Of a DNA stretch of 64,000 bases, positions 2,437 to 23,855 are shown piece by piece. This DNA is from Bacteroidota bacterium (lineage in GTDB: Bacteria > Bacteroidota > Ignavibacteria > UBA10030). The stretch is taken from assembly GCA_035286705.1 (NCBI GenBank), contig DATECW010000088.1, forward strand, positions 2,853 through 66,852, given 5' to 3'. A program made the translations under genes and the position numbers. Under the pieces are notes generated by a model, which was given only the letters and a program-made list of their open reading frames with translations, was not told where the DNA came from and made no database searches. How positions within the stretch are numbered: position 1 is the stretch's first letter; each line of letters opens with the position of its first letter.

Positions 2437-2484
2437 GAAACCTCCCTTTCTAATGGTCCGACGAGTTTCTTTTCTTCCAAGAAC

Positions 2485-3216: not shown

Positions 3217-3229
3217 AAATTAAGAATGC

Positions 3230-4390
3230 CTACAATGCCTTTAGGGCGACCGTCGGATCGAGCCGCGACGCCTTATATGCAGGGTAGATACTTGAAACCA
3301 GTCCCACGGAAACAGCGAGCATTATCGAAAATGCAAACAATGCATAATCGGCTGACCAGCCGGCCGTCCCATTCACTGTCATCAATGGAGTTACCAACTG
3401 TGCAGCACCTGCACCGATGAAATATCCGCTCACCCCCGACAGAAAGCTCGTGAGAAATGCCTCCGTGAGAATGATCTTCATGACATGGGTTTGGCGGAAC
3501 CCGATGGCGCGGAAGATACCGATCTCCCTTGTTCGTTCATTCACGGACGCCATCATATTCGTGATAACAATAAGAGCTGCCACGAGGAGGACCACCCCGG
3601 AGATCCCATACGAGAAATGCTCAAACCGGTGCATCGCCTCCATTTTTGATTCAATCGTCTGACGAATGGCCACCACCTTCGCCCCGGGCAATTTCTCCGA
3701 TGTCTGGCGCACAATCTCCTCGATGGGACAGTCGTAACAGAGAGCCGCGACTTCGACGAGGCTCAATTCATCCGGTTTGCCGAACAATCGCTGGGCTTCC
3801 GCAAGATCAATGAATACAACGCCATCGTCTTGCGAACCGGTTGGTTCGAGGACCCCCGCAACGGTAAACGATTCTCCTTGGATCTCGAAAGACTGGTTCA
3901 AGTCGAGCCCGAGCGACTTCTTCGCGTCTGCTCCAATGATCGCCTGATCCTTCGTTGCCGGTCTCCGTCCAACCAACTTCCACCATTTCTTCAGTTGCAG
4001 TTCTTGATCGAACTCGACACCGACAACGAGGACGGTTCGGTCTATCACCTCGGTTATATTGAGAAGCTTCGGAGCGATGATCCTAATATTCTTGCTGTTC
4101 TCGATCGTGAGAATCTCCTGCGCGTCTTTTGTACGAAGCTGCTTCACATCCAAAGCAACGCCAGAGACCGCCATTCCACCGTAGTTCAGCGAGAGGTCAT
4201 CAGATTTTGGAGTGATGAGAATATTCGCTCCAAACTCGTCTAATTTGTTGGCAATATCTGCATTCATGATCCTGGCCACCGTAATGAGTGTGACAACCGT
4301 ACTGACGGCAATGGTTAGTCCAAGAACAAGAAAGAGCATCTTGGACTTTCGCCGTCGAAGATTGTTGAGCGAGATGTTGTAGAGTTTCAT
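3230..4390 (-). CDS. ABC transporter permease, FtsX/MacB family
   Basis: N-terminal TM helix, large periplasmic domain, three C-terminal TM helices. Size and topology fit FtsX-like permeases. Adjacent to the ABC ATPase. Confidence 0.8.
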   Translation of the reverse strand: MKLYNISLNNLRRRKSKMLFLVLGLTIAVSTVVTLITVARIMNADIANKLDEFGANILITPKSDDLSLNYGGMAVSGVALDVKQLRTKDAQEILTIENSKNIRIIAPKLLNITEVIDRTVLVVGVEFDQELQLKKWWKLVGRRPATKDQAIIGADAKKSLGLDLNQSFEIQGESFTVAGVLEPTGSQDDGVVFIDLAEAQRLFGKPDELSLVEVAALCYDCPIEEIVRQTSEKLPGAKVVAIRQTIESKMEAMHRFEHFSYGISGVVLLVAALIVITNMMASVNERTREIGIFRAIGFRQTHVMKIILTEAFLTSFLSGVSGYFIGAGAAQLVTPLMTVNGTAGWSADYALFAFSIMLAVSVGLVSSIYPAYKASRLDPTVALKAL

Positions 4391-4458
4391 TGTAATCTTT
4401 GATTGTTCGTTTTCTGCATCCCGCTGTTCTTGGGCGGGAACGATAGGCGACTATCGAC

Positions 4459-5133
4459 TTAGATTCGCCTCTGCCACCGGACGACCAATTGCTCGTCGAT
4501 CTGAATTTCGTTCCCAGCGACGGTATTGGGGAGGGCGTCCGGCGGGTACTTCCCGCATGAACCACTCACCGGCTCGAGATCGTTCAACTCCCATGTCGAG
4601 CCGCAAGAGTTGCAAACCAGCTTGTCGCCCTTCATGTGGAACCGAGTCGAATTGCACGGTTCACACATGCTCACGGCTGTCACCACCTTTCCCTCGCCGG
4701 TGATATAGGCAAGAAGGGGTATATTGTTCAGTTCGGTGGAATACTGAAAGGCAATGAACTTCCGTTCCCTGAGCAGGTCGAGTGGTAGTATGATCTTTCG
4801 ATTCTCGACTTTTGCAGGGACATCGATCATCTGCTCTCCCGTCACACTGTAGCTCGCAGGCGAGACAATTGCTGGAGACGCCTTGATGACTGGGTTACCG
4901 CTCTCTGGAAGGTTGAAATATACCCAGCCGCCGAACACGGCAACAACTCCGAGCGCGATGAATATTTTCAACCGATTCTTGCCCGACGGTCTATGGTTTG
5001 CCACAACTCGGTCGTGTTTTTCCTGCCAAAGAGGTTTTGCCGGTTTCTTCCCGGTCAGTGAAGCTCCGCATCCGATGCAGAAGTTCGAATCAGGCTCGAG
5101 AGCCTTTCCACATTCTGAACAAAAGTTTGCCAT
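4459..5133 (-). CDS. Zinc-ribbon / TM / Cys-rich membrane protein (DUF2318-like)
   Basis: N-terminal CxxC...CxxC zinc ribbon (CSECG...CIGCG), one TM helix, C-terminal CEPCN...CNSCGS...CGKY motifs. Resembles the DUF2318 membrane proteins that accompany FtsX-type ABC transporters. Confidence 0.5.
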   Translation of the reverse strand: MANFCSECGKALEPDSNFCIGCGASLTGKKPAKPLWQEKHDRVVANHRPSGKNRLKIFIALGVVAVFGGWVYFNLPESGNPVIKASPAIVSPASYSVTGEQMIDVPAKVENRKIILPLDLLRERKFIAFQYSTELNNIPLLAYITGEGKVVTAVSMCEPCNSTRFHMKGDKLVCNSCGSTWELNDLEPVSGSCGKYPPDALPNTVAGNEIQIDEQLVVRWQRRI

Positions 5134-5168
5134 GATGTTGCTCCTGTTGTGATTCGGTTTCTGTTGAT

Positions 5169-7361
5169 TTACAATCTTGCACTTACACCTATGACCGGAA
5201 GAAATGGAATGATTGTTAGTTGTTCTTTCGAAGAATACGTCTCATCCCACATGTAGTGCACGATGTTCTTTTGATTGTAGGCATTCAGTACTTCCAAATA
5301 GACATCGAGATCGAACGATGCAAATTGAAAATGTCGAGTTACACGAACGTCGAGTCGATTATATGCCGAATAACGATCCGAGTTATGGATGCCGGGAATG
5401 GGAAACCAGCGTTCTTCGTTCGGGTCGTACCAGGACGAAGCGACCGGTGTGTATGGCCTTCCGCTGCCATAGCGGAAGCGCAAACCGGCTTGCCAATGTT
5501 CCGAGAATTTGTAGTTTGAAACGACACTTATCAAGTGTGGCCGGTCAAAATCGAAAACGTGCAGATCGCTGTTTGTTCCTTCTCTCCGCTTTGACAGAGA
5601 ATAGGTGTACGACAACCAGCCGAAGAATCCTTGACCATTCTTGAGTTGAACGTAAGACTCTACGCCGCGTGAGTATCCGTCGCCATTATTGGAAAGATTC
5701 CAAAGCGAATCGATTGTAATGAGTCGAGAAAGATTCTTGTTGTACAGCTCAAGGCTCACCACCATTGCGTCACCCACCTCGTGCCTGATGCCGATGCCAT
5801 AGCTTTCAGCACGCTTGGATTTGAGATTGCTGTTGATATCCAGCTCAAACGGTCGTGGTGACTGATAATACCATCCGTAGCCTGCCGAAAGACTCATGTG
5901 TTCATTCCAGGCATAGGAAAGATTGAATCGCGGGGAGAACGTACTCTCCTTGCTTTTCGCAATGTAGTCATATCGAACACCAACGCTCGCACTTAGCGAT
6001 GGGGAGATGGTCCATCTGTCATCAACATAAAGTGAAGGCTTCATGGATGTTCCGGTTCCCCGAAGTTTTAGCTCGTTGAAGTTCAAGGCTATTTCGAGCG
6101 GGACATCAATGGTGACATCTTCCTTCTCTCGACCGAGCCATCCGCCGATATGCAGCTCATTTGCGGGAAAGATGACGGTGAAATCCTGCTTGAGCGTCCA
6201 TTCTTGAATGTTGTATGCTTCTACGGCATTACGCGGTTGAACGGAAGAGCTTTTCGCTTGACTCCATGAGACGATAAAATCCGAAAGAAAGAACTCGCCG
6301 AGCAGAGAGCGAAGGCGGCCTGTTACAACACCGCTTTTGTTTTCCCAGGAAAAATCTCCTGTGTAGTTGGGACGGTCAAAAAAACCGTACATCCGTTCTC
6401 TGGAGTAAAGCCCGGAGAAGGTCAATTTATGGTCTTGTGAAAGGTTGAAATCCACTTTTGAGTTAATATCAAAGAAGTACGGCAGCACGCTGTAATCGCT
6501 GGCAAGATCAGTATATTTGAGCAGCACGTCGAAATAACTCCGCCGGGCAGAGAGCATTGCTGTGCCATTGGCAAATGCGAGCGGCACTTCGACTGTTCCA
6601 CTCGCATCCGACATGCTGATCGATGCCTCGCCATTCAGCTTCTCCATATTGCCGGTCCGATTCTCAATCAACAACACCGAAGAGAGCCTATCACCATAGC
6701 GGGCAGGGAATCCCGCCGCATAGAACTCGACTTTCTCGACGAGTCGGGAGTTGAAAATGCTCCAGTAGCCGCCGCCCATCATATCGAAATGGAATGGGTT
6801 TCGGATTGTTGCGCCGTCGTACAGCACGAGATTTTCATCCGGACTTCCGCCGCGCACGTAGAGCTTTGAATTGTCACCATCGGATGCGATTCCTGGGAGT
6901 GTCTGAACCACCCAGAAGATATCCTGGGCGGAACCTGGTGTATTGACCACCATTTGTTTTCCGAGACGCGCTGTGATGCCGCTTGCATCGTAGCGCTCGG
7001 GTTTCGGTGTAATGACGATTTCTTCCGTTTCCAAAGCTGTTTCTTCCAGCAGCACGTCAATAACATTTTCCCCCTGTTTGATTCGAACGTTTGAAACGAG
7101 CTTCTCCTTGAAACCGATCATCGAAAATCTCACGGTATACGTTCCAATCGGGATATTTTGAATAGAGTAACGTCCCTGTGAATTTGTTGCAGATCCAATG
7201 TTCGTGCCCTTGAGAATAACGTTGACCAGCTCAAGCGGCTGCTTTGATCCCTTGTCCAGCACAACTCCTTCAAGACTGCCCGTTTGCGCTTGTGCGGGGA
7301 GACAAACGACTGTGAGTGCAAACAATAAGACCATTAGAGACGATTTCATTTTGTGTCTCAT
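5169..7361 (-). CDS. TonB-dependent outer-membrane receptor with N-terminal CarboxypepD_reg-like domain
   Basis: Signal peptide, then a CarboxypepD_reg-like region (GVVLD...QPLELVNVILKGTNIGSATNSQGRYSIQNIPIGTYTV), plug and about 22-strand barrel length. The start may be at the MKSSL Met (7349). Confidence 0.8.
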   Translation of the reverse strand: MRHKMKSSLMVLLFALTVVCLPAQAQTGSLEGVVLDKGSKQPLELVNVILKGTNIGSATNSQGRYSIQNIPIGTYTVRFSMIGFKEKLVSNVRIKQGENVIDVLLEETALETEEIVITPKPERYDASGITARLGKQMVVNTPGSAQDIFWVVQTLPGIASDGDNSKLYVRGGSPDENLVLYDGATIRNPFHFDMMGGGYWSIFNSRLVEKVEFYAAGFPARYGDRLSSVLLIENRTGNMEKLNGEASISMSDASGTVEVPLAFANGTAMLSARRSYFDVLLKYTDLASDYSVLPYFFDINSKVDFNLSQDHKLTFSGLYSRERMYGFFDRPNYTGDFSWENKSGVVTGRLRSLLGEFFLSDFIVSWSQAKSSSVQPRNAVEAYNIQEWTLKQDFTVIFPANELHIGGWLGREKEDVTIDVPLEIALNFNELKLRGTGTSMKPSLYVDDRWTISPSLSASVGVRYDYIAKSKESTFSPRFNLSYAWNEHMSLSAGYGWYYQSPRPFELDINSNLKSKRAESYGIGIRHEVGDAMVVSLELYNKNLSRLITIDSLWNLSNNGDGYSRGVESYVQLKNGQGFFGWLSYTYSLSKRREGTNSDLHVFDFDRPHLISVVSNYKFSEHWQAGLRFRYGSGRPYTPVASSWYDPNEERWFPIPGIHNSDRYSAYNRLDVRVTRHFQFASFDLDVYLEVLNAYNQKNIVHYMWDETYSSKEQLTIIPFLPVIGVSARL

Positions 7362-7365
7362 TGAC

Positions 7366-8295
7366 TTAGAATTTGCGCCCTCCGTACTTTTTTTCTACCT
7401 CATCGACTAGCTGCACGATAGTGTATGTGCCCTCGCGAATCTTGTCATCAACAAAAGTCTTGACCTCCTGTGCTCCGCGTGGATGAGCACAACTGCAGTC
7501 TTTCAGTTCATCAATGCCGCATTGACCGCACGGGCACGTGAAGCGTGAAAAGACTTCCACTCGATCCGCAATGGTTGCGGGCTTGGAGGTGTTGGAGATT
7601 CTTGAAGCTAAGGCGAACATCTCGCTTACCGGCTGTTTGGGTACCGTGAGCTTTGTCGATTGCCCTGTCGTGTGGGCAAGAGAATCGTAGCGAGAGGAAA
7701 GCGCGGACTTCATCCACCCGAACGTGTTATTGACGGCAAGTATGATTTCCTGCGATGATTTTCCGGATTGAAGGTTCGTCCTGATGAATTGCCGTTCCTG
7801 TATGGCGGTGTTGCACCGGCAGGTATCGAGAGGCTGTTCCCCACACGCTCCGCACGAACAAATGAATTGTGAGGCAATGTCCAGCACTTTCCTCTCCAAG
7901 GCCGCATCGCTGCTCTTCAACTCCACGAGAGAGGCTTGTGGTTCCGGTTTCCCCCGCTCACCACGCTCGTAGAGTACAACAATGAAGAGAATCCCGGCAG
8001 TCAACAAGATAAGACCGACTACTCCGGGACTCCGGCGCCATTTCGTATCGACTCGTCGATCCTTTTTCTTGTATCGCGCTTGTGCTGGAGCCAGTTGTCG
8101 AGGGTGATGAGCTCGTTCTTGCCGAATTTCGGAACCGCAATTTGCGCAGAACTTCGCCCCTGGAATGCTTTCAAAGCTGCATGTAGGGCATGGCCTCAAA
8201 TCATTTGCCTTCTCTGTTTTCCCAACCTCAATACCACAGTTCGCACAAAACTTTGTATTATCCCTGTTTTCCGCACCACATTCGTTGCACTTCAT
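7366..8295 (-). CDS. Membrane-anchored protein with an N-terminal double zinc ribbon and two C-terminal PCYCGC-like Cys modules
   Basis: MKCNECGAE...FCANCG and CPTCSF...FCANCG are two zinc ribbons. One TM helix follows. Then two repeats: FICSCGACGEQPLDTCRCN and FTCPCGQCGIDELKDCSCAH. Confidence 0.55.
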   Translation of the reverse strand: MKCNECGAENRDNTKFCANCGIEVGKTEKANDLRPCPTCSFESIPGAKFCANCGSEIRQERAHHPRQLAPAQARYKKKDRRVDTKWRRSPGVVGLILLTAGILFIVVLYERGERGKPEPQASLVELKSSDAALERKVLDIASQFICSCGACGEQPLDTCRCNTAIQERQFIRTNLQSGKSSQEIILAVNNTFGWMKSALSSRYDSLAHTTGQSTKLTVPKQPVSEMFALASRISNTSKPATIADRVEVFSRFTCPCGQCGIDELKDCSCAHPRGAQEVKTFVDDKIREGTYTIVQLVDEVEKKYGGRKF

Positions 8296-8315
8296 TTCAA
8301 AATCCTTTCATTGAA

Positions 8316-8666
8316 TCACTTCCTCGCTGTGAGTTTCTCAGCCTCTAATCCATCTCCAATCTGTCCTGAGACAAGTTCAACTTCAGCTCTCGTCTCATCA
8401 ACAAGACGCATAACCTTAACAATGCCGAGTTCTTGCTTGTGGGGCAAAGGGGCACTGGCGCCATGATTGTGTCCGCCGCTTGAGGTTGAAGGCTGATGAT
8501 ATTGGTAGAGAATAAAAAGGTCTCCCACTTTTACATCGGCTCCCTTGGAGAATTCGAGGTAGATCTCTTTCGGGAGGCCATCGACGACTTGAATCCGGTA
8601 CGATGTGCTGCATGAAGAAACAAATAAAGAAAGGACGGATAGAGTACCATATGCAAGATATTTCAT
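8316..8666 (-). CDS. Small lipoprotein with a His-rich insert; paralog of the 10324-10710 product
   Basis: Lipobox LFVSSC. VKVGDLFILYQY and IVKVMRLVDE...EVELVSGQIG blocks are shared with the 10324-10710 product. Carries a GGHNHGASAPLPH insert. Confidence 0.5.
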   Translation of the reverse strand: MKYLAYGTLSVLSLFVSSCSTSYRIQVVDGLPKEIYLEFSKGADVKVGDLFILYQYHQPSTSSGGHNHGASAPLPHKQELGIVKVMRLVDETRAEVELVSGQIGDGLEAEKLTARK

Positions 8667-8680
8667 ATTTGTTCCCTCGT

Positions 8681-9337
8681 CTAGAACATGCTTCCCCCAC
8701 GTGCAGCCCAGATGACGATCATCACAGCCCCCATGACGATGCCGCCAATGATGAGATAGTCCGACATTCCTCCCCTCCGGTCCATCATCATGCTGCCGTG
8801 GCCATCTCCTGATGCTGCCGGGTGCCTTGTCGTTTCGATGATAACCTCAGGCCGTAATCGTCGCTCGCCCAGCGCGCCAATGTGAAACATGGTCTTGTGC
8901 TCACTCGCCTGGGAAGGTGTAAAGCTGACGACATAGACTCCTGGTTGCGCGCTTTCCTCGACTTCCTGGTCAAAATTCATATCATGCTCCGGCGACAGAA
9001 GAACGCGCGTGGAGTCGCCCTCGCCATACATCGCGCTCATATGGCGTTCTTCTGGCGCATGCAAGAACGATGTGTGGAAGGAAACCTTCGCGTTCGAGAC
9101 GGGTTGGCCGGTTGTCTTATCCACGAGCTTGAGGGTAAAAACCGCCTTTTCACCCACTTGAAGTGGTGGGAAGAGTGCAATTGCCTTCACATCTCCGAAT
9201 TCGACTTCCTTTTCAAGAGCTGATTCAAGTGCCATCTGGTGGCTCCCCGAATCCATTCTTCCGTGAGTTCCCATCATCCCGACACCCATGCAGGATACGA
9301 GGAACAGACTTAGAGTAAATGCGACCATGCTTTTCAT
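8681..9337 (-). CDS. Secreted protein with C-terminal TM anchor; Ig-like (YtkA/FixH-like) putative metal-binding domain
   Basis: Signal peptide. TLKLVDKTTGQPVSNAKVSF block is similar to TLTDEKSSQPVEKAKVTIEI in the 12037-12879 product. His/Met-rich tail (DGHGSMMMDRRGGM) and a final TM helix. Confidence 0.45.
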   Translation of the reverse strand: MKSMVAFTLSLFLVSCMGVGMMGTHGRMDSGSHQMALESALEKEVEFGDVKAIALFPPLQVGEKAVFTLKLVDKTTGQPVSNAKVSFHTSFLHAPEERHMSAMYGEGDSTRVLLSPEHDMNFDQEVEESAQPGVYVVSFTPSQASEHKTMFHIGALGERRLRPEVIIETTRHPAASGDGHGSMMMDRRGGMSDYLIIGGIVMGAVMIVIWAARGGSMF

Positions 9338-9367
9338 TGTTTTTGATCCTTTTGTGAATTCCGTGTG

Positions 9368-9676
9368 TCAGGCTCCGACATATTGTTTCGGACTGCTCTC
9401 AAACTGTTCCCGGCAGGCGTGCGAGCAAAAATAGAACCGGATCCCTTTGTACTCAACGAAATATGGGGGACTGTTCTTATCCACATTCATTCCACAAACG
9501 AGGTCGATGGCTGTTTCACCATCATTTGTCCCGGATGTGAAGTAGCCTGGATCCTTGATGAAGGTCAACATGCACTCTGCGCTGCAGAAGTAGTATGTCT
9601 TGTCGAGAAATGTCTTTACGACCGTCCTCGAATCATCTTCTTCGATATCCATTCCACAGACGATGTCCCGTATCAT
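9368..9676 (-). CDS. Tandem YHS/TRASH-domain metal-binding protein
   Basis: Two copies of VCGM...(Y)YFCS..C (VCGMDIEEDD...YYFCSAEC and VCGMNVDKNS...FYFCSHAC). The start is chosen at the Met just before the first VCGM. Confidence 0.7.
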   Translation of the reverse strand: MIRDIVCGMDIEEDDSRTVVKTFLDKTYYFCSAECMLTFIKDPGYFTSGTNDGETAIDLVCGMNVDKNSPPYFVEYKGIRFYFCSHACREQFESSPKQYVGA

Positions 9677-9686
9677 GGCTTCCCTT

Positions 9687-10313
9687 TCATTCACTGCCGT
9701 AGAAGTACCGTGCCACGTCATACCCCAGCCTGCTGATCAGCCCCTGCAGAAGTTGTCCATCGGTGTAAAACGTCCCCTGCTGCTCGCCGCCGCTGTAATA
9801 GTAGGTCGTCGTCGAGAAAGTGGATTCCACGTGCTTTGCCCAAACGACGGTCGAGGAATCGCAATCGACCAGCCTGACTGTGACGCTGCCTGATGCGATT
9901 CGGTTTGAATATGAGTTTGTGTATTTCACTTCGCCAACCGACGTAAACAGGTTTCCTGTCAGGAGATATCGACATTGAAGACCTTGCTTCAATCCATGAA
10001 TGGTATGCATATCGGGAATGCCGTTTACGTTGAGATTGTTCGCAAGCAGATAATTGCGTACAACCGTTGCAGGAATAATTTTCATATGCGCGGAGTGTTC
10101 AAGAAGGTTGACAATAACCTCATCGGACACCTGTCCACCCAAATTCGAAAGAACGCTTTCGGTTTCGAACGGCATGATCGCAATCGCCTCGCCGGGCTTG
10201 ATGATGACAGAGGGACTGATCTGTACCGTCCTCTTCGTAACCGAGCCTGTTCCGCAACCAGTCAGAAAGAACATAGCCAGGAACACCGTTGAAAGGTAAA
10301 TGATTGTTTTCAT
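9687..10313 (-). CDS. Lipoprotein, function unknown (LpoB/LPP20-like size class)
   Basis: MKTIIYLSTVFLAMFFLTGC lipoprotein signal. The rest is soluble, with no recognised motif. Start moved to the internal Met. Confidence 0.45.
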   Translation of the reverse strand: MKTIIYLSTVFLAMFFLTGCGTGSVTKRTVQISPSVIIKPGEAIAIMPFETESVLSNLGGQVSDEVIVNLLEHSAHMKIIPATVVRNYLLANNLNVNGIPDMHTIHGLKQGLQCRYLLTGNLFTSVGEVKYTNSYSNRIASGSVTVRLVDCDSSTVVWAKHVESTFSTTTYYYSGGEQQGTFYTDGQLLQGLISRLGYDVARYFYGSE

Positions 10314-10323
10314 AGCACTCTCC

Positions 10324-10710
10324 TTATCGAAGCCGTTGTTTCTCAACGATGTCGTTCGACTGAAGCTCACCGCTGATGAGTGTCACCGCTGCGAAGTGTC
10401 CATCGAATAATTCGACGACTTTCGCTTCGCCGACCTTGATTTTCCGATAACTCGGTCTCCCGTTACGCGCCGTCGGAACATCTCGTTGATATTCAGAAAG
10501 CCACCGCGTATTATCCACTTTTACTCGGTACACGAACATGATATCGCCGACCTGTATTCCGTCGTCAGTTCCAATGCAGATGTGGACCCTGTCTTCGAAT
10601 TTCATCAGTACGGATCCACGCATTGTTTGATGGCTTGTAGAACACCCGCCAAACGCACTCACAATCAAGAGCATACTAATCGCTATCGGGATGAATCCTG
10701 TCGTTTTCAT
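10324..10710 (-). CDS. Small lipoprotein, paralog of the 8316-8666 product
   Basis: Lipobox AFGGC. IQVGDIMFVYRV and IKVGEAKVVELFDGHFAAVTLISGEL blocks align with the paralog. Confidence 0.5.
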   Translation of the reverse strand: MKTTGFIPIAISMLLIVSAFGGCSTSHQTMRGSVLMKFEDRVHICIGTDDGIQVGDIMFVYRVKVDNTRWLSEYQRDVPTARNGRPSYRKIKVGEAKVVELFDGHFAAVTLISGELQSNDIVEKQRLR

Positions 10711-11741
10711 TTGACCACTCCCGTATCAATTATGTTCGCTTCTTCGACGAGCTTCCGGATAGGGCGATTAACCTTTCGCTCCAACATGAGCCATAGCAAT
10801 GTAGTGAGGACAATCGCAACACCGGCCAGTAGAAGAAGCGAAGTCCTCACTTCTTGTGCCGACCGGTTCATCTCTCTTTGCTGCTGAGCGAGAAGTTCTC
10901 TTGTGTCGCTCCCAAACGAGTCAAGTTGGTCAAGAAGCCTGAGTCTAAGGCTGTCAAGTGATGACATGATGAGATTGTGCGAGACAAATAGTTCCGCTCT
11001 CTCTTGCTGATGATTCCGCTTCCCTTCATTTGACAGCCTCTCCACAACGTCGAACATGCCACCTGCGATCAGATGGAAACGATGCTCAAGATTTGTAAGC
11101 ACGTCGAAAGTCGACTTGGACACAGCCTGCGATTCCTCGAGATCTGAAACCGCATCGATGACCTTCACACGGGCTCTCTTGAAATCGCTAAGGGCATCAG
11201 TCGCCTCTCCACGGTGGAATCGTTCTACCGCCAACATTTCCTCAAGCACGCCGCTTTCCATCGCACTCGACGCCTCTGAAAGAAGTCGCACGGTTTCCAC
11301 TGTTCTTCTTGCGTCGAGTTGAATCTCGTTTGTCCGAAGCCCAATGAACAGTGCGACACCGAGGACACTGATTGTCATGAGCAAAAATGCCGACCGAATT
11401 CTCCTGTGGCTGCCACGCAGCATGAAGTTGATGAGTTGCTTGATCCGTGATTCCTCCAGTTTGCTTGTCCGCTTGCCCAGCGGGATTTGACTTGGAAGCC
11501 CTGGATCGTATTCCTCTACAAAGAAACAATGATCAGCTACAGCCCCTATCGTGCCAACGCGATGTACGCTCTCACGAACAAGTTCCACTTCATCGTCGCG
11601 CGAAAGCAACTCCATTCGGGAGATTTTGGATGATGGTGAAAAGTATTCGGTGACCATGATTTCTGCAATTCCCAGGGCCTCGAGCTCTTCAACGAGCCAG
11701 TGGACTCGCACCGTGTTGATGTATGCGGTGATCTTTTTCAT
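10707..11741 (-). CDS. P-II-like (GlnB/PII-NG, DUF3240-type) N-terminal domain fused to a two-TM coiled-coil membrane module
   Basis: N-terminus MKKITAYINTVRVHWLVEELEALGIAEIMVTEYF matches the GlnB fold start (MKKIEAIIKP...GI.GMTVTEV). TM helices at about 120-140 and about 300-320 flank a roughly 160-aa helical segment. No output domain. Confidence 0.5.
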   Translation of the reverse strand: MKKITAYINTVRVHWLVEELEALGIAEIMVTEYFSPSSKISRMELLSRDDEVELVRESVHRVGTIGAVADHCFFVEEYDPGLPSQIPLGKRTSKLEESRIKQLINFMLRGSHRRIRSAFLLMTISVLGVALFIGLRTNEIQLDARRTVETVRLLSEASSAMESGVLEEMLAVERFHRGEATDALSDFKRARVKVIDAVSDLEESQAVSKSTFDVLTNLEHRFHLIAGGMFDVVERLSNEGKRNHQQERAELFVSHNLIMSSLDSLRLRLLDQLDSFGSDTRELLAQQQREMNRSAQEVRTSLLLLAGVAIVLTTLLWLMLERKVNRPIRKLVEEANIIDTGVVK

Positions 11742-11820
11742 GTTTCCTTTGCCTGGTCGCTAGCTCCGAACGAGAGACCCATCGTTTGTCGAGCTAGCTC
11801 CATGATGATCGTTTCTCTGG

Positions 11821-12015
11821 TCATTCCTCCACGATCAGATCGTTTGCCGACGTATTGTCGTCCTTTCCCATTGCCTTTAGATATTTTGCAGGCTTTTCAA
11901 CAAACGAATGAAGACATCCCGGTGCACAAAAAAAATACGTTTGACCATCATAGAGAGCACTGCCCGCTGCAAATTCCTCATCAATCATCATTCCACAGAC
12001 AGGGTCTTTTTTCAT
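11821..12015 (-). CDS. Single YHS/TRASH-domain protein
   Basis: PVCGMMIDEE...TYFFCAPGC motif. 64 aa. Confidence 0.7.
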   Translation of the reverse strand: MKKDPVCGMMIDEEFAAGSALYDGQTYFFCAPGCLHSFVEKPAKYLKAMGKDDNTSANDLIVEE

Positions 12016-12036
12016 AACGGCATCTCCACCGAGGGA

Positions 12037-12879: not shown

Positions 12880-12893
12880 ACTGTTCTCCTCTG

Positions 12894-13232: not shown

Positions 13233-13235
13233 CGT

Positions 13236-16200
13236 TTAGTCTTCTAGGAGCTGCCCTTCGGTGGCCAATTCCTTCTTCAAGCTCCAGCTCTTCCACAAAT
13301 AGTAGATGACGGGATAGACAGCGAGTTCCAGCAAGAAGGAAGATGTGAGACCGCCGACCATCGGGGCAGCGATGCGTTTCATAACATCCGCGCCGGTGCC
13401 CGTGCTCCACATGATCGGGAAGAGGCCGATCATGGTCGTCAACACGGTCATGAGCTTGGGCCGCACGCGCTGGACGGCCCCGTGGTGGATGGCCTCCCGC
13501 AGATGCTGCAAGCTTCTCATCTTGCCTTCTTTCTTCCACTGTTCATACGCTATGTCGAGGTAGAGAAGCATGATCACCCCCGTTTCCGCGTCCAGGCCGG
13601 CCAGTGCAATAATGCCCACCCAGACAGCGATACTCAGGTTATACCCGAGGATGTAGAGCAGCCAGAAGGCTCCGATGAGCGAGAACGGCACCGCCAAAAA
13701 CACTATTCCCACCTTGGTCATCGATCGCGTGCTGAGATAGAGCAGCACGAAGACGATGAAGAGCGTCAGGGGAATGACGAGCATCAGGCGCGTTTGCGCC
13801 CGCTCCATGTACTCGTACTGACCGCTCCAAATGATATTGTATCCCGCAGGCAGTTTTATCTTTTCTGCAACGGTTCGCTTCGCATTCTGTACGTATGTTC
13901 CGACATCGATGTCTTTGATGTCGACATAAACCCAGGCATTGGGACGCGTATCTTCACTTCGAACGACCATCGGACCTTTGCGGGGAGTGATCGTGGCAAG
14001 CTGACCGATCGGAATCTGTTCCCCTGTTGGCGTCGGGACGAGCACACGTTGAATCGCCTCGAGATCATCGCGGAGTTCGCGGCTATATCGCAGGTTGACA
14101 CTGTACCTTTCGAGGCCCTCCACCGTGTTTGTGATGCTCATTCCTCCCATTGCCGTCTGAATGACCATTTGCACATCGCCGACCGTCAAGCCGTAGCGGG
14201 CGGCCTCCCTGCGATCGATATCGAAATCAAGGTAGTTCCCGCCGACGGCCCGTTCGGCAAAGGCACTCAATGTGCCGGGAACGGTGCGCATGACGGACTC
14301 AACTTCTTTCCCTATTTCTTCCAACACTTTGAGATCGGGGCCGGCGATTTTGATCCCCACCGGAGTCTTAATCCCGGTGCTCAACATATCTGTGCGGGTT
14401 TTGATCGGCATCGTCCAGGCATTCGTCAGTCCCGGAAACTGGATAGCACGGTCCATCTCGTCGACCAGCTTCTCCACTGTCATGCCGGCGCGCCATTCAC
14501 TTTCTGGTTTAAGCATGATCGTCGTTTCGATCATATCCAGACCAGCGGGATCGGTCGCGGTCTCAGCGCGGCCGATCTTGCCGAACACATGATGCACTTC
14601 GGGAAATTGTCGAAGAATCTTGTCGGTTTGCTGAAGGAGCTCTCTTGCCTTTGTGATCGACATTCCCGGCAACGTTGTCGGCATATACAGGAGGTCACCT
14701 TCATACAGGGGCGGCATGAACTCAGAGCCAAGTTGGCTGTAAGGGAGATAAGTCACCACGAGGAGAGCCAGCGTCAGCCCGATCACCCATTTGTTATGCT
14801 TCAACACAAAATCGACAACAGGGTGATACAGCCTGATCAAGACCCGACTGAGAGGATGGCGTTCCTCCGACCGGATTTTTCCGCGAATCCAATATCCCAT
14901 CAGCACAGGAACGAGCGTGACCGCAAGAATGGCTGCGGCTCCCATGGCGTAGGTCTTGGTAAAGGCAAGCGGTTTGAACAGCCGGCCTTCTTGCGCTTCC
15001 AGGGTAAAGACGGGAAGGAACGAAATGGTGATGATAGCCAGAGAAAAGAACAACGAGGGACCTACTTCCTTGGCTGCATCCAATATCACTTGCCAGTGTT
15101 CCTTGCGCTGTGCCGGGGGTTTCTCATGCTCGCGTTCAAGATGCTTATGACCATTCTCGACCATGATGATAGCGGCATCAACCATGGCTCCGATGGCGAC
15201 AGCGATTCCACTCAGTGACATGATGTTCGCGTTAATGCCCTGCATTTTCATGACAATGAAGGAGATCAAGACTGCCGTCGGCAGTGTAATGATCACGACA
15301 AATGAACTCCGGGCATGCAAGAGGAACGCAATAATCACGAGAGCCACAACAACCATCTCTTCAATGAGGCTTTCGGTGAGCGTATCAATGGCTCGCTCAA
15401 TGAGGCTTGACCTGTCGTAGGCCATCTCGATTTTCACGTCCTCCGGCAACCCTTGCTTCAGGCCTTCTAACTTTTTCTTCACGTTCTCGATTACTTCCAG
15501 GGCGTTCTGGCCATATCGCATCACAATAATGCCGCCGACGACTTCGCCTTCGCCGTTGCTTTCGGCAAGACCACGGCGCATCAGAGGTCCAATCGTCACG
15601 TCCGCAACATCCGCCACGTACACTGGAGTGCCGCTTTTCTTGTCCACCATAAGCGGGATGTTCTTGACATCATCAACGGACTTTATATATCCAAGGCCCC
15701 GCACCATGAACTCCATCTCACTCATTTCGATAACTTCACCGCCAACGTCGTTGTTGGAGTTTTTGATTGCCATCTCAACCATATTGAGCGGGATGTTATA
15801 GGCTAAGAGCTTTGTCGGATCGACCGTTACCTGATACTGTTTGACAAATCCACCGATGCTTGCTACCTCTGCGACTCCTTCAACGGCCGTGAGTTCGTAT
15901 TTGAGATACCAATCCTGGTATGACCGAAGCTCCTGCAGCGAGCGCTTATCGGATGTGAGTGTATACATAAAGACCCAGCCTACGCCGGTTGCATCCGGTC
16001 CCAGTGCGGGAACAACGTTCGGAGGAAGACGCTTCTGTGCATAGTTCAGGTATTCTAGGACCCGACTACGGGCCCAGTAGAGATCGGTTCCGTCCTCGAA
16101 GATGACGTAGACCAAGGAATAGCCGAAGAACGAATAGCCACGCACAACTTTGGATCCCGAAACAGAGACCATTGCGGTGGTGAGTGGATAGGTCACCTGG

Positions 16201-16388
16201 TCTTCCACAATGCGTGGAGATTGACCCGGATACTCGGTATAAATGATCACCTGGACGTCGCTCAAATCGGGGATCGCATCAATCGGAATGCTCAGCATCG
16301 AATAGACACCCCAACCGATAAGAAAGAGCACCGCGAGAATGACCATGAACTTATTTCGAATCGACGCTTCAATGATTTTTTCTAACAT
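13236..16388 (-). CDS. cusA: Heavy-metal efflux RND transporter, CusA/CzcA (HME) family
   Basis: 1050 aa, 12-TM RND layout, the long antisense ORF typical of HME pumps, and adjacent adaptor and OMF genes. Cu/Ag specificity is inferred from the surrounding Met-rich/HMBD proteins. Confidence 0.9.
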   Translation of the reverse strand: MLEKIIEASIRNKFMVILAVLFLIGWGVYSMLSIPIDAIPDLSDVQVIIYTEYPGQSPRIVEDQVTYPLTTAMVSVSGSKVVRGYSFFGYSLVYVIFEDGTDLYWARSRVLEYLNYAQKRLPPNVVPALGPDATGVGWVFMYTLTSDKRSLQELRSYQDWYLKYELTAVEGVAEVASIGGFVKQYQVTVDPTKLLAYNIPLNMVEMAIKNSNNDVGGEVIEMSEMEFMVRGLGYIKSVDDVKNIPLMVDKKSGTPVYVADVADVTIGPLMRRGLAESNGEGEVVGGIIVMRYGQNALEVIENVKKKLEGLKQGLPEDVKIEMAYDRSSLIERAIDTLTESLIEEMVVVALVIIAFLLHARSSFVVIITLPTAVLISFIVMKMQGINANIMSLSGIAVAIGAMVDAAIIMVENGHKHLEREHEKPPAQRKEHWQVILDAAKEVGPSLFFSLAIITISFLPVFTLEAQEGRLFKPLAFTKTYAMGAAAILAVTLVPVLMGYWIRGKIRSEERHPLSRVLIRLYHPVVDFVLKHNKWVIGLTLALLVVTYLPYSQLGSEFMPPLYEGDLLYMPTTLPGMSITKARELLQQTDKILRQFPEVHHVFGKIGRAETATDPAGLDMIETTIMLKPESEWRAGMTVEKLVDEMDRAIQFPGLTNAWTMPIKTRTDMLSTGIKTPVGIKIAGPDLKVLEEIGKEVESVMRTVPGTLSAFAERAVGGNYLDFDIDRREAARYGLTVGDVQMVIQTAMGGMSITNTVEGLERYSVNLRYSRELRDDLEAIQRVLVPTPTGEQIPIGQLATITPRKGPMVVRSEDTRPNAWVYVDIKDIDVGTYVQNAKRTVAEKIKLPAGYNIIWSGQYEYMERAQTRLMLVIPLTLFIVFVLLYLSTRSMTKVGIVFLAVPFSLIGAFWLLYILGYNLSIAVWVGIIALAGLDAETGVIMLLYLDIAYEQWKKEGKMRSLQHLREAIHHGAVQRVRPKLMTVLTTMIGLFPIMWSTGTGADVMKRIAAPMVGGLTSSFLLELAVYPVIYYLWKSWSLKKELATEGQLLED

Positions 16389-16429
16389 GTCTTAAATCCT
16401 TTGTCAGGTTCTATTCGTCAAGAAGAACA

Positions 16430-18130
16430 TTAGTGCTGTTGGTCGTCTGGCACGTACTTCTCAGGGCTCTTCTTAAACTTCTCCAAGTCATCATCGCTGC
16501 AGAAAAAGTAGGTCTTCCCTTTGTGCATGTACGATCGTTCCTTGTCGGGTGTAATTGTCATTCCACAAACAGGATCTACCACAGTTTCAGGAACCACGGC
16601 CATCGTATCGACGTCATTGTGATCCTGCGCCCGAGGTTTTTCCTGATTCATTTCGTGACCCGCATGTTCCGCCGATTTCAGCGTCTCCTGTCCTTTCTTC
16701 GCCTCTTGTTGCTCCATGGGTTTCCCTGCCCGCCCGGAAGAATCCCCTGTGGCGGGCGGGGACATGTCATGCCCCTCGTGTCCCCGCATCAAGCCCACAG
16801 CTGCCTTGAGGTTGCTTTCGGAATCAATAAGGAATTGAGACGAAGTGACTATTTTCTCACCCTCTTTGATCCCGTCGAGAACCTGGACGTAACCGTCGGC
16901 CATCACCCCGAGTCGTATTTCACGCGGATCAAAGTAGCCTCCGCCCAGAGCTATCACGGCAATATTGCGTTCGCCTGATCGAATGATGGCCTGATTCGGA
17001 ATGGCCACCGCATCGACAGCAACGGGAGATATAATCTTCACCGTCGCAAACATTTCCGGTTTCAAGTCGAGACTCGCGGTGTTGCTGACAACCACGCGCA
17101 CCTTCGCTGTTTTTGTTTCCATATTGAGGGTGGGATAGACGTACGTAATCGTCCCTCGAAACGTTTTTCCGGGCAGATAGGAAAGTTCCACATTCGCCTG
17201 TTGCCCAACTTTTACCCACGGCAACTCGTACTGGTAGATGTCCGCAAGAACCCACAGCGTGGAAAGATCGGCAATCTTATAGAGGTCCATCCCCGCCATG
17301 ACATTCTGCCCTTTAAAAACCATTTTCTCCATGACGATCCCCTCAACGGGCGAGTAGATTGTCATCGTTTTCCTGGGCGATCCGCGCTTTTCGAGCTGCT
17401 GGATCTCAGACTCGGAAATGTCCCAATACAGAAGCCTGCGCTTTGCACTCTCGATAAGTTCATCTGCACCTGTGCGTGCCTCTTCAATACTGCTTTGCTG
17501 CAACTGTTTTCTGTATCGAATTGCTTGCAAGTATTCTTCCTGTGTTGAGACCAGTTCGGGGCTGTATAACTCCATCAAGGGATCCCCTTTTTGAACAACC
17601 TTGCCAGTGTAATCAACGTGAAGCTTCTCCACCCATCCCATGATTTTCGTGTTGACTGAATACACCTTCGTCTCGTCAAAATCGACCTTCCCGACTGCTC
17701 GAATGACTTTGCTGAGTTTCCTCCGTTCGACCGTTGCAATCTTGACGCCAATATTCTGGACGGTCACAGGATCGATTTTGATTCCCTTCGAATCGCCTTG
17801 ACCTTCGTAGACCGGCACCAAATCCATTCCGCAATCAGGGGCTTTCCCCGGCTTGTCGGAAGTGTACCACGGGTGCATCGGATCTCTGTAGAAGGCGATT
17901 GTTTTTTCGCCTGATGTGCCCGACGATTCATCGTAGACCGGGACGAAGTCCATACCATCAGCGGCTTTCTTCGGTGTTGGAGATGTTATTTGAGGACTCA
18001 TCGGGTCACGATAGTAAAGGATCTTCCTTTCCGATGAAGAGTTTCCTGCGTCCGAAGGGCGAAATGCCAACCAGCCTGCCCCCAGACCGATTACGAGACT
18101 CAAAACTGCTATCACGGCGATGCGTTTCAT
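16430..18130 (-). CDS. cusB: Efflux RND periplasmic adaptor (CusB/CzcB family) with N-terminal HMBD repeats and C-terminal YHS/TRASH domain
   Basis: N-terminus has YYRDPMSPQ...GMDFVPVY and FYRDPMHPWYTSDKPGKAPDCGMDLVPVY. Central barrel/lipoyl/MP domains. C-terminus has VCGMTITPDKERSYMHKGKTYFFCSDDD (YHS). Confidence 0.85.
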   Translation of the reverse strand: MKRIAVIAVLSLVIGLGAGWLAFRPSDAGNSSSERKILYYRDPMSPQITSPTPKKAADGMDFVPVYDESSGTSGEKTIAFYRDPMHPWYTSDKPGKAPDCGMDLVPVYEGQGDSKGIKIDPVTVQNIGVKIATVERRKLSKVIRAVGKVDFDETKVYSVNTKIMGWVEKLHVDYTGKVVQKGDPLMELYSPELVSTQEEYLQAIRYRKQLQQSSIEEARTGADELIESAKRRLLYWDISESEIQQLEKRGSPRKTMTIYSPVEGIVMEKMVFKGQNVMAGMDLYKIADLSTLWVLADIYQYELPWVKVGQQANVELSYLPGKTFRGTITYVYPTLNMETKTAKVRVVVSNTASLDLKPEMFATVKIISPVAVDAVAIPNQAIIRSGERNIAVIALGGGYFDPREIRLGVMADGYVQVLDGIKEGEKIVTSSQFLIDSESNLKAAVGLMRGHEGHDMSPPATGDSSGRAGKPMEQQEAKKGQETLKSAEHAGHEMNQEKPRAQDHNDVDTMAVVPETVVDPVCGMTITPDKERSYMHKGKTYFFCSDDDLEKFKKSPEKYVPDDQQH

Positions 18131-18152
18131 TACTTGGCTCCTTGAATATCCG

Positions 18153-19448: not shown

Positions 19449-19566
19449 CTCCTTGTTGAGAAAGAATGATCTCTTTCGTTACCTCACGTGGAAAACATGA
19501 GGAAAGCACACCCGTATCCTTGGGATAGAGGAATCCCCGGATTAGGGTAATTACAAGGAGAAGCTG

Positions 19567-23706: not shown

Positions 23707-23855
23707 TGGGACCGTGGCCGGTATTTGTAAAGCTGATTCTAGTGGCGAGTGTCAGAGATTCCTTTAATAAGTCGCCAGCAGCTTTCGGACGAATTCTGAC
23801 TGTTTTGAGCAATCTTAGGGAACGAATTTATTCAAGGAACTTGCAGCTCGAGACA

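Follow-up and report, generated by a model that had tools for sequence, protein, structure and literature searches.

The window, that is, the whole stretch of 64,000 nucleotides that was analysed, contains a genuine open reading frame on the minus strand at 10707..11741, which runs from ATG to TGA and encodes a protein of 344 amino acids. The gene is surrounded by the following features:

18153-19448, minus strand: cusC (Pfam and NCBIfam)
16430-18130, minus strand: cusB with HMBD and YHS domains (Pfam and NCBIfam)
13236-16388, minus strand: cusA (CusA/CzcA, TIGR00914, 1207 bits)
12894-13232, minus strand: Met-rich periplasmic protein of 112 aa, between cusA and the YHS gene
12037-12879, minus strand: His/Met-rich HMBD protein of 280 aa (Pfam HMBD, E 1.7e-16)
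11821..12015, minus strand: cytoplasmic YHS/TRASH mini-protein of 64 aa, 79 bp upstream of the target gene (Pfam YHS, E 3.3e-13)
10707..11741, minus strand: the target, a fusion gene for a P-II-like domain, TM1, a periplasmic four-helix-bundle sensor, TM2 and a HAMP-AS1 tail
10324..10710, minus strand: lipoprotein of 128 aa (g128), whose ATG overlaps the TGA of the target (ATGA)
9687..10370, minus strand: conserved lipoprotein g227, roughly 208-227 aa, 62-71% identical across islands
9368-9721, minus strand: protein with two YHS domains (Pfam)
8681-9337, minus strand: His/Met-rich protein g218
8316-8666, minus strand: g116
7366-8295, minus strand: DZR/CcmH-like protein (Pfam)
5169-7361, minus strand: TonB-dependent receptor (Pfam)
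4459-5133, minus strand: Zn-ribbon plus FtrD-like/DUF2318 protein (Pfam)
3230-4390, minus strand: FtsX/MacB permease (Pfam)
2485-3216, minus strand: ABC ATPase (Pfam)

The cusCBA genes (13236..19448, minus strand) lie upstream on the same strand and encode a predicted Cu/Ag-type heavy-metal RND efflux pump. The first-pass annotation had placed the target next to this pump. It does belong to the cusCBA island, but cusA lies 1.5 kb upstream on the same strand and three genes, for the 112-aa protein, the 280-aa HMBD protein and the 64-aa YHS protein, intervene. The YHS gene, which had been overlooked, sits in an apparent intergenic gap. Downstream, the block at 2485..9721 (minus strand) is syntenic with the homologous loci L001, L003, L005, L006, L012-L016, L021 and L022. 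The ATGA overlap between the target and g128 suggests translational coupling, and the 128-aa lipoprotein is a possible periplasmic partner of the fusion protein. The true start of g227 is likely an internal ATG giving MKTIIYL.... A scan of positions 8000-13400 for promoters and terminators gave counts no higher than expected from shuffled sequences, with Bacteroidota promoters lying outside the coverage of the scan.

The 344-aa protein is composed of the following parts:

11508..11741, minus strand: aa 1-78, T-loop-less P-II-like core (beta-alpha-beta-beta-alpha-beta)
11463..11507, minus strand: aa 79-93, linker DPxLPSQIPLGKRTS
11412..11462, minus strand: aa 94-110, conserved amphipathic helix in the cytoplasm that runs into TM1 (KLEESRIKQLINFMLRG)
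11331..11393, minus strand: aa 117-137, TM1 (in to out; hydropathy), with invariant F119
10848..11330, minus strand: aa 138-298, periplasmic four-helix-bundle sensor domain
10782..10847, minus strand: aa 299-320, TM2 (out to in; hydropathy and alignment), with invariant W317
10710..10781, minus strand: aa 321-344, cytoplasmic tail consisting of HAMP helix AS1 only, with invariant V324 and P327

The presence of two transmembrane helices, as initially annotated, was borne out by hydropathy (Kyte-Doolittle peaks of 2.3 for TM1 and 2.6 for TM2) and by cytoplasmic flanks rich in K/R, with five such residues within the 17 positions before TM1. From a cytoplasmic N-terminus the chain crosses the membrane as TM1, forms the four-helix bundle in the periplasm and returns through TM2 to a short tail in the cytoplasm. 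The AlphaFold2 (AF2) model of the whole protein has a pLDDT of about 80; it includes a helix at aa 94-107 and shows the linker as disordered (pLDDT <50 at aa 84-91). This linker is the best-conserved segment of the protein, with a mean column identity of 0.81. Conservation reaches 0.76 for aa 94-110 and 0.71 for the tail, and all cytoplasmic parts (0.76, 0.81, 0.76 and 0.71) are better conserved than the sensor domain (0.52). The strong conservation of the cytoplasmic parts fits an output or interaction surface.

The P-II pattern previously noted in the N-terminal part proved to be well beyond chance. In searches of PDB sequences with the family profile, P-II proteins ranked at the top as two colinear pieces (E-values down to 2.7e-7 with the N-domain profile), and comparison with a P-II alignment in hhalign gave a probability of 99.25% (E 5.3e-20). 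Identity to solved P-II structures is 21-29%. The AF2 model shows the fold beta-alpha-beta-beta-alpha-beta with a pLDDT of about 80. The domain has the GlnB-homologous, ferredoxin-like core of ~80-110 residues that defines the P-II superfamily and the profile similarity is not spurious. The hhalign alignment contains an 18-residue gap exactly at the T-loop site between beta2 and beta3, and HMMER alignments are split into two pieces (1-32 and 42-79). At the B-loop, the target reads G63-T-I-G66-A-V-A-D70-H71-C72 where canonical proteins have TGxxGDGK; the family consensus is T-T-G-x-x-x-D-H-(S/C)-x-F, in which G66 and D70 are retained, G89 of GlnB is replaced by H71 and K90 by S/C72, and the K58 position carries no conserved Lys. 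As a P-II homologue, the N-terminal domain has diverged and lacks both the T-loop and the canonical nucleotide-binding motif. Its score against PF00543 (12.1-12.5 bits, E 0.19-0.25) stays below the gathering threshold of 25 bits, and among 26 subfamily members the best reached E 0.005 and none the Pfam threshold. The domain falls into a P-II sister subfamily with a deleted T-loop and a changed B-loop, a compact group of about 80 residues that lies outside Pfam coverage. A stand-alone form of 80-105 aa is encoded in related genomes, and some of these relatives stop right after the linker motif (...LEE). A fusion of the P-II-like domain to a methyltransferase (P0074), known from a single 1.4-kb contig, is a weak lead.

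Two more specific assignments of the first-pass annotation did not hold. The domain is not of the PII-NG type, since its T-loop is deleted, it falls under the PF00543 threshold and true PII-NG-like proteins are encoded by separate genes. Kinship to DUF3240 (PF11582) was rejected, as the target gave no Pfam match even with a cut-off of E<=10, nor did any of the 26 family members match; the DUF3240 structure 3ce8 corresponds to the target at the level of the fold only, with 6% identity. The true P-II homology and the label 'nitrogen regulatory protein PII', which the JGI annotation gives to some family members, could be taken to indicate a membrane-tethered P-II protein that senses ATP/ADP/2-oxoglutarate in nitrogen or energy control. 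This is very improbable: the family members lack the T-loop with its R38 and Q39, show no conservation of K58, carry H and S/C where GlnB has G89 and K90, and all stay below the Pfam P-II threshold, and they occur exclusively in metal-resistance contexts.

The helical part had been described as a long helical segment of a coiled-coil module; it turned out to be a histidine-kinase-type periplasmic four-helix bundle of roughly 160 aa between the two TM helices in the AF2 model, followed by a HAMP AS1 helix. A profile search of 1.84 billion representatives retrieved the kinase paralogues P0060 (523 aa) and P0061 (517 aa), which bear HAMP, HisKA and HATPase_c domains and whose residues 1-235 match aa 107-341 of the target (E 3e-44 and 5e-42). 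A tblastn comparison of the fusion sensor with a kinase paralogue gave 28% identity (E 2e-23). The TM1-bundle-TM2-AS1 module of the target and the sensor half of histidine kinases from the same metal-resistance islands are paralogues. As in 4HB-HAMP kinases, two TM helices enclose a periplasmic four-helix bundle, whereas the complete HAMP domain (AS1, connector, AS2) and the DHp (HisKA) and HATPase_c core of the paralogues are missing: only profile positions 4-23 of 53 of the Pfam HAMP model match the tail (E 0.027), the fusion protein stops where the HAMP connector starts in an alignment with full HAMP-HisKA-HATPase kinases, and no HisKA/HATPase_c core occurs in any of 45 aligned family members. 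This agrees with the initial description of a two-TM membrane protein without recognisable enzymatic output. Fusion and kinase sensors are 28-33% identical and similarity within each group is higher, which indicates that both have been retained for a long time. Helix 94-110 was considered as a permuted HAMP AS2 helix because of a weak likeness of its 'INFML' to 'FNRML'. This was rejected, as aa 1-108 gave no HAMP match and the helix would be antiparallel to AS1.

Seven residues are invariant in fusions and kinase paralogues alike (F119, H176, F222, M229, H255, M259 and P327), among them four candidate metal ligands:

11214-11216, minus strand: H176
11055-11057, minus strand: M229
10977-10979, minus strand: H255
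10965-10967, minus strand: M259

M169 and E173 are conserved close to these positions, with E173 varying among the kinase paralogues. According to helix-boundary arithmetic, which gives an estimate, the His/Met residues of the sensor lie on core-facing stripes, at most one or two helical turns apart. The genomic context points to a metal as the ligand of the sensor. Heme, which such residues bind in cytochrome b562, or a different ligand would fit the buried His/Met set equally well; similarity of the sensor to cytochrome b562 was not significant in phmmer (E 0.4-1.4), and the heme ligands were outside the alignment.

The protein ends inside a HAMP domain, and in two close relatives the gene is damaged, by a deletion that truncates it (L045) or by a split (L009). 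This indicates that the gene is dispensable in some strains, and it might suggest a decaying remnant of a histidine kinase or an assembly artefact. We consider this extremely improbable. The family comprises 51 homologue clusters that are 37-81% identical, nearly all of them 342-345 aa long, with the same start, a common end position and a well-conserved tail, and 13 full-length copies are present in separate species genomes. Constant length and end across 51 clusters imply that the architecture is not a truncation artefact, and the alignments point to an old fusion family of stable length. A truncated or frameshifted kinase was also rejected at the locus itself, where the downstream reading frames (10324-10710 and 9687-10370) encode lipoproteins without kinase domains and the homologues end alike. 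Named sources of the family are Ignavibacteria or unclassified Bacteroidota MAGs, except for one MAG labelled Chitinophagales.

Comparison of homologous loci revealed that all 17 non-redundant fusion loci are located in Cu/Ag islands and that cusA is present in 14 of them. The YHS gene is situated immediately upstream of the fusion in 8 of the 17 loci and beside 11 of 26 stand-alone copies, and a YHS mini-gene is the commonest immediate upstream neighbour of P-II-like genes of the T-loop-less subfamily. The stand-alone form usually follows a YHS mini-gene and the DUF2318/FtsX/ABC module. Overall, the genes that recur most closely beside the P-II-like domain encode the YHS mini-protein, the DUF2318/FtsX/ABC module and P1B-ATPases, and CusA is not its only neighbour. 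Of the proposed role in signalling or pump gating, signalling is the most reasonable reading of the protein, but gating of the adjacent pump is not specifically supported. PII-NG-type P-II proteins of 107-115 aa are encoded by separate genes in L001, L005, L006, L008, L012, L014 and L021; in the 64-kb window itself, island P-II proteins and E. coli GlnB used as tblastn queries matched the target only.

Alternatively, the protein could be a membrane-anchored metal handler or scaffold without signalling function, which would bind cytoplasmic metal at the altered B-loop cleft in the manner of CutA or receive it from the YHS protein, bind periplasmic metal with its bundle, and buffer it, pass it on or organise the envelope proteins of the island. 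The D70-H71-(S/C)72 in place of the phosphate-binding GDGK, the C-D-x-C or GTCG...DH that distant stand-alone relatives bear at the B-loop site, and the frequent coupling to an upstream YHS mini-gene are in line with this. The island is rich in periplasmic His/Met proteins, and CutA has been reported as a copper-binding PII-like trimer (PMC12685090; PMC7726332). We nevertheless consider such a role doubtful: the kinase-type signalling elements are kept (the invariant AS1 proline P327, W317 and F119), the strong conservation of the juxtamembrane helices would be superfluous for a simple anchor, and a single site per membrane protein offers little buffering capacity.

Canonical P-II (GlnB) controls the histidine kinase NtrB. 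By analogy, the fusion might modulate a paralogous 4HB-HAMP kinase of the island, with which it would pair or beside which it would be placed, either through control of the kinase core by the P-II-like domain or as a dominant-negative sensor that competes for the ligand. The sensor modules are paralogous with candidate ligand residues in common, and a kinase paralogue is encoded in the same island in 6/17 fusion loci, sometimes directly adjacent to the fusion (L009, L015-L017). However, none was within reach in the other 11/17, and the 64-kb window contains no paralogous kinase, its single kinase-like match (40262-42697) covering only the catalytic core of an unrelated kinase. Moreover, the low identity between the sensors argues against heterodimerisation and stand-alone P-II-like genes mostly occur without a kinase paralogue nearby, which makes this relationship unlikely. 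The kinase-containing loci are informative with regard to origin. In L015 and L016 a stand-alone P-II-like reading frame immediately precedes the kinase paralogue, the gene order needed for a fusion of the two, and in L012 two genes separate them. The fusion likely arose when a stand-alone P-II-like gene was joined to a duplicated neighbouring kinase gene and everything after HAMP AS1 was then lost.

Signals could also travel from the inside to the outside, with the P-II-like domain sensing cytoplasmic metal, metal-loaded YHS protein or a metabolite and inducing an interaction of the periplasmic bundle with the co-translated lipoproteins (g128, g227) or with periplasmic parts of the pump. The g128 gene adjoins the fusion in L005, L007, L008, L013, L020 and L021; in L001 and L012 it lies downstream with one gene in between. 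This direction is quite improbable, as roughly half of the loci lack the lipoprotein beside the fusion and the ligand-type residues are kept as in true kinases, which points to outside-in sensing.

With a probability of roughly 0.5, we read the gene as encoding a kinase-less transmembrane sensor with the P-II-like domain as its cytoplasmic working part. The periplasmic bundle would contain a buried 2His/2Met site (H176, M229, H255, M259) for Cu(I)/Ag(I) or an envelope signal closely related to these, and ligand binding would move the TM helices as in the paralogous kinases. This movement may pass to helix 94-110 and the AS1 tail next to the membrane, upon which the P-II-like domain and the conserved linker could change their position, oligomeric state or accessibility. 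Like P-II proteins in general, the P-II-like domain might then act on a partner in the cytoplasm through direct contact, and metal export would be tuned without phosphotransfer or transcription. Ranked by genomic support, candidate partners are the YHS mini-protein, then the DUF2318/FtsX/ABC module (through its ATPase or its permease), a P1B-type ATPase and finally CusA. The complete version, a phosphorylation-independent device in which a Cu/Ag sensor with T-loop-less P-II-like output switches exporters (P1B-ATPase, ABC, CusA) or a YHS carrier by contact, is a possible but clearly more tentative extension. Several points weigh against the sensor reading. P-II proteins are trimers and 4HB/HAMP sensors are dimers, and no HAMP domain can be built from a single AS1 helix. 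The protein also lacks the T-loop, through which P-II usually binds its partners. Furthermore, conservation is lowest in the sensor domain, E173 is variable in the kinase paralogues and the gene is truncated or split in relatives.

P-II proteins rank with the most widely distributed proteins in signalling, and some of their genes are part of heavy-metal efflux operons (PII-NG). The fusion gives a metal-island P-II domain a defined input side and cellular location; it is a handle on the role of "metal-operon" P-II proteins and shows the re-use of a kinase sensor module with a non-kinase output. If the P-II-like domain is indeed the output, this would reveal the role of P-II proteins in metal-efflux operons, both PII-NG and the loop-less sister group, and add a third output logic for bacterial transmembrane sensing besides kinases and chemoreceptors. 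The scope is narrow, with a few dozen clusters from Ignavibacteria/Bacteroidota, and the reach is limited unless the principle is general. Searches of the literature on PII-NG, on DUF3240 and on PII-like proteins combined with transmembrane, fusion or heavy metal turned up no account of this architecture, and the combination of a kinase sensor half with a loop-less P-II-type domain instead of the kinase appears to be undescribed.

Canonical P-II proteins (GlnB/GlnK, PF00543) share with the target a homologous beta-alpha-beta-beta-alpha-beta core, MKKI.A at the start and TG..D as the frame of the B-loop, and for both the presumed mode of action is contact with other proteins, in many cases membrane transporters. 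Unlike them, the target lacks the T-loop (18-residue gap) and the signatures for uridylylation and ATP, and has (G/A)DH(S/C) for the canonical GDGK; its domain is covalently joined to a two-TM sensor, and its genomic context concerns metals, not nitrogen. PII-NG proteins are described in PMC7726332 as P-II proteins encoded beside czcA/cusA (Sant'Anna et al. 2009). They belong to the same superfamily and the same type of island as the target, with shared features that include AYV at the start, and the target gene likewise clusters with czcA/cusA-type RND genes. With the family HMM, island P-II proteins scored 35-52 bits and E. coli GlnB 28.7 bits. PII-NG-like proteins are, however, stand-alone, have a full-length loop region, pass PF00543 and are encoded by separate genes after cusA (L001, L005, L006, L008), whereas the target is a 344-aa fusion with a deleted loop from a shorter sister subfamily that is most often coupled to YHS, a domain described in PMC4626032 as a probable copper-sensor module. 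CutA1 is a PII-like soluble trimer for divalent-cation tolerance without sensor fusion, unlike the target, which did not match the CutA1 Pfam model and showed no sequence relationship to CutA.

P-II and PII-like proteins regulate transporters, a subject treated in a review (PMC10710835). In GlnK-AmtB, SbtB-SbtA and P-II-NrtBCD, a soluble trimer docks via the T-loop upon a cytoplasmic metabolite signal. In the target, by contrast, a domain without T-loop is anchored to the membrane and linked to a periplasmic sensor. The 4HB (4HB_MCP/CHASE3-type) HAMP kinases, especially P0060/P0061, are homologous to the target in TM1, bundle, TM2 and AS1 and have the same invariant His/Met residues, topology and island; compared to these kinases, the target lacks HAMP AS2, DHp (HisKA) and ATPase and has gained an N-terminal P-II-like domain.

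The 344-aa fusion protein, an N-terminal P-II-like domain joined to two TM helices and a periplasmic bundle, is encoded in a metal island of about 18 kb whose genes all run in one direction (window positions 1669-20019, minus strand) and which in gene order comprises:

upstream end, minus strand: Cys-rich membrane protein (g150)
13236-19448, minus strand: cusC, cusB and cusA
between cusA and the YHS gene, minus strand: Met-rich 112-aa protein, then 280-aa HMBD protein
11821-12015, minus strand: 64-aa YHS/TRASH mini-protein (Pfam YHS, E 3e-13)
10707-11741, minus strand: fusion gene, ATG to TGA, 344 aa, single ORF
10324-10710, minus strand: 128-aa lipoprotein, its ATG overlapping the TGA of the fusion gene (ATGA)
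next, minus strand: 227-aa lipoprotein
after this, minus strand: 2xYHS protein, then His/Met-rich g218
8316-8666, minus strand: the 116-aa lipoprotein g116
after g116, minus strand: DZR/CcmH-like protein, TonB-dependent receptor, Zn-ribbon plus FtrD-like/DUF2318 protein
downstream end, minus strand: FtsX/MacB permease, ABC ATPase, DUF4198 protein

The YHS mini-gene, missed in the first-pass annotation, fills an apparent 295-bp gap upstream of the fusion gene. The 128-aa (10324-10710) and 116-aa lipoproteins resemble paralogues with common ...VGD.hhhY... and C-terminal V.L.SG motifs, and neither received a family assignment. Trehalose genes directly beyond the island (21496-25073, minus strand; a fused trehalose-6-phosphate synthase/phosphatase and a TreT-like gene) mark its upstream boundary.

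At E<0.01 neither Pfam nor NCBIfam matched the fusion protein, and a domain scan at a relaxed threshold gave two hints only: HAMP profile positions 4-23 of 53 on aa 322-341 (E 0.027) and the P-II model on aa 1-32 (E 0.25). Searching 5.8 billion protein clusters yielded 51 relatives, nearly all of 342-345 aa and 37-81% identity, from MAGs of Ignavibacteriales, Bacteroidota and Stygiobacter. Most of them are unnamed, and some are labelled 'nitrogen regulatory protein PII' at JGI. The family is rare, taxonomically narrow and outside Pfam and NCBIfam coverage, and we found no description of the architecture in the searchable literature. All 45 sequences of the family alignment (A1) have start and stop at identical positions; hence, the architecture is conserved and the gene is not broken, which makes a pseudogene extremely improbable. 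In the closest relative (P0003, L045 4001-4969; 92% identical) the gene breaks off after about aa 250 and is joined to sequence for the C-terminal TM part of a P1B-type ATPase, with the entire downstream block missing. This represents an island deletion, so the fusion gene is dispensable there. At L009 (11718-12752), directly 3' of a histidine kinase paralogous in its sensor half, a stop codon splits the gene into ORFs of 141 and 197 aa, which points to a pseudogene or an error in sequencing.

Solved P-II proteins were the first matches of the family profile, with two pieces, aa 1-32 and aa 42-79, aligned colinearly. With a profile of 26 N-domains including stand-alone forms (A2), E-values against solved P-II proteins went down to 2.7e-7. 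Comparison of A2 by hhalign with E. coli GlnB and eleven P-II proteins from related loci and searches (A3) gave a probability of 99.25% (E 5.3e-20), with one 18-residue gap exactly at the T-loop. AF2 modelled aa 1-77 as beta-alpha-beta-beta-alpha-beta both in the full protein (pLDDT 80) and in the isolated domain (pLDDT 79.5, pTM 0.69), and all 50 best Foldseek matches in the PDB were P-II proteins (TM about 0.7, identity 21-29%). The P-II similarity and fold proposed in the first-pass annotation are therefore well founded, and the domain is a genuine but unusual P-II homologue, a superfamily member by fold and homology.

The further assignment to the PII-NG type, named there alongside DUF3240, had to be given up: PII-NG proteins are by definition stand-alone and full-length, whereas this domain is fused and loop-less, and no subfamily member matches DUF3240 in Pfam. 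The domain did not qualify as a CutA member either. Canonical P-II membership fails on loop, motif and threshold, all subfamily members scoring below the Pfam P-II threshold. A canonical nitrogen-sensing role is very improbable. The subfamily HMM scored P-II proteins of related metal islands at 35-52 bits and E. coli GlnB at 28.7 bits, which identifies the domain as a loop-less sister of metal-operon P-II proteins. The latter, named PII-NG, cluster with czcABC, and no test of their function is on record (PMC7726332). Additional stand-alone P-II-like genes adjoin the fusion gene at L001 (11097-11405), L012 (10758-11075) and L007 (8753-9031) and have C-D-x-C in the B-loop (TACDHC, SACDSC). This motif suggests thiolate metal binding where canonical P-II proteins have their ATP-binding loop. 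A metal-handling anchor without signalling role would be in line with these CDxC variants, with D70-H71-(S/C)72 in the B-loop of the fusion and with the PII-like protein CutA, which is reported to bind copper (PMC12685090), although we regard it as rather doubtful.

Hydropathy placed TM segments at aa 117-137 and 299-320, in agreement with the two helices annotated before. Since K/R residues are enriched before TM1 and after TM2 (family means 4.0 and 3.5; opposite sides 2.0 and 2.4) and the protein lacks a signal peptide, aa 138-298 are periplasmic, with the P-II-like domain and the 24-aa tail in the cytoplasm. AF2 modelled aa 111-338 as four long helices. What had been described as a coiled-coil module is instead a histidine-kinase-type periplasmic sensor: when 1.84 billion representatives were searched exhaustively with a profile, the first 230-235 residues of P0060 (523 aa, E 3e-44) and P0061 (517 aa, E 5e-42) matched aa 107-341. 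Both are histidine kinases, as the sensor part is followed by full HAMP, HisKA and HATPase_c in P0060 and full HAMP and HATPase_c in P0061. Weaker matches were 4HB_MCP/CHASE3 kinases and chemoreceptors. Aligned with the sensor modules of the kinases, the fusion stops immediately after the first HAMP helix, AS1.

Fusions and kinases alike have invariant F119 (TM1), H176, F222, M229, H255, M259 and P327 (AS1). Both His and both Met residues sit on hydrophobic a/d stripes of their helices and, by predicted helix-boundary arithmetic, lie at most one or two turns apart, close to the membrane-distal end. Buried clusters of two His and two Met typically serve as ligands for soft metals (Cu(I)/Ag(I)), and H176/M229/H255/M259 may form such a site. 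Mean column identity varied along the protein:

aa 1-78, P-II core: 0.76
aa 79-93, linker: 0.81
aa 94-110, pre-TM1 helix: 0.76
TM helices: 0.58-0.59
periplasmic bundle: 0.52
AS1 tail: 0.71

Despite being the most conserved segment, the linker D-P-x-L-P-S-Q-I-P-L-G-K-R-T-S is modelled as disordered (pLDDT below 50), as would be expected for a docking motif or an element ordered only in the oligomer.

The same island surrounds homologues of the fusion gene and is syntenic across Ignavibacteria MAGs. A scan of 185,579 species, with one genome per species, revealed 33 loci, 13 with the full fusion and about 19 with a stand-alone P-II-like ORF (80-105 aa) only; all belong to Ignavibacteria or Bacteroidota MAGs except one Chitinophagales-labelled MAG and one unclassified bacterium. 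Co-occurrence with cusA was seen in 14 of 17 non-redundant fusion loci. The DUF2318/FtsX block was present in 10 (a count limited by contig ends), the YHS mini-gene <250 bp upstream in 8, an additional standard P-II in 7 and the kinase paralogue in 6; the 64-kb window itself encodes no standard P-II. Stand-alone genes typically come last in the string DZR, (TonB receptor), DUF2318, FtsX, ABC, YHS, P-II-like; further copies come after cusA (L039-L041) or have P1B-ATPases nearby. With YHS directly upstream in 11 of 26 stand-alone copies, the mini-gene is the commonest immediate upstream neighbour of fused and stand-alone forms alike. At L003, there is an overlap between the fusion gene and the stop codon of a P-type ATPase gene.

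On a single 1.4-kb contig (L046 17-985), P0074 is a UbiE-type methyltransferase with a C-terminal loop-less P-II-like domain, its gene overlapping that of a His-rich P1B-ATPase by 4 bp; L001 and L012 have a similar free methyltransferase between FtsX and ABC ATPase. Stand-alone genes amid CcmH-like, TPR and CcmF-like (cytochrome c maturation type) genes (L010 2-2900, L033, L034) hint at a thiol or redox connection for the module. At L015 and L016, a stand-alone ORF immediately precedes the kinase paralogue; at L012, two genes lie between them. Such adjacency would be able to yield the present architecture by fusion with a duplicated kinase and subsequent loss of the kinase core.

Domain identities, topology, kinase paralogy, common invariant residues, conservation pattern and synteny are the observations from which we infer all function, including ligand, signalling direction and partner. 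At roughly even odds (about 0.5), the protein is a kinase-less TM sensor: the periplasmic bundle would detect Cu(I)/Ag(I) or another, related signal in the envelope, and the P-II-like domain would be the cytoplasmic output, working by protein contact. Three points are problematic for this reading: P-II proteins are trimers and 4HB/HAMP sensors dimers, a HAMP domain cannot form from a lone AS1 helix, and the T-loop, the usual P-II contact element, is absent. Modulation of the paralogous kinase is unlikely and is weakened by the window and other fusion loci that lack that kinase. Inside-out signalling to the co-translated lipoproteins appears less probable still. For the kinase-less sensor, candidate partners ordered by genomic support would be YHS, the ABC system, a P1B-ATPase and CusA. 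YHS is probably a copper-sensor module (PMC4626032).

For specialists in P-II proteins or metal homeostasis the architecture would be a moderate surprise, and it makes the role of metal-operon P-II proteins directly testable. DUF2318, YHS and an FtsX-type ABC transporter also occur together in the C. jejuni Fet cluster, and the island's set is similar to the functionally unresolved Campylobacter FetA/FetBCD (PMC10783030). Compared to canonical P-II proteins, the domain lacks the T-loop, its B-loop T-G-x-x-G-D-G-K is replaced by T-T-G-x-x-x-D70-H71-(S/C)72, and its subfamily has no Lys conserved at the K58 position. With 4HB-HAMP kinases the protein has the sensor module in common, whereas it has neither a complete HAMP nor a kinase core. 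It would work most like a P-II-type regulator set at the membrane, with input from a kinase-type sensor.
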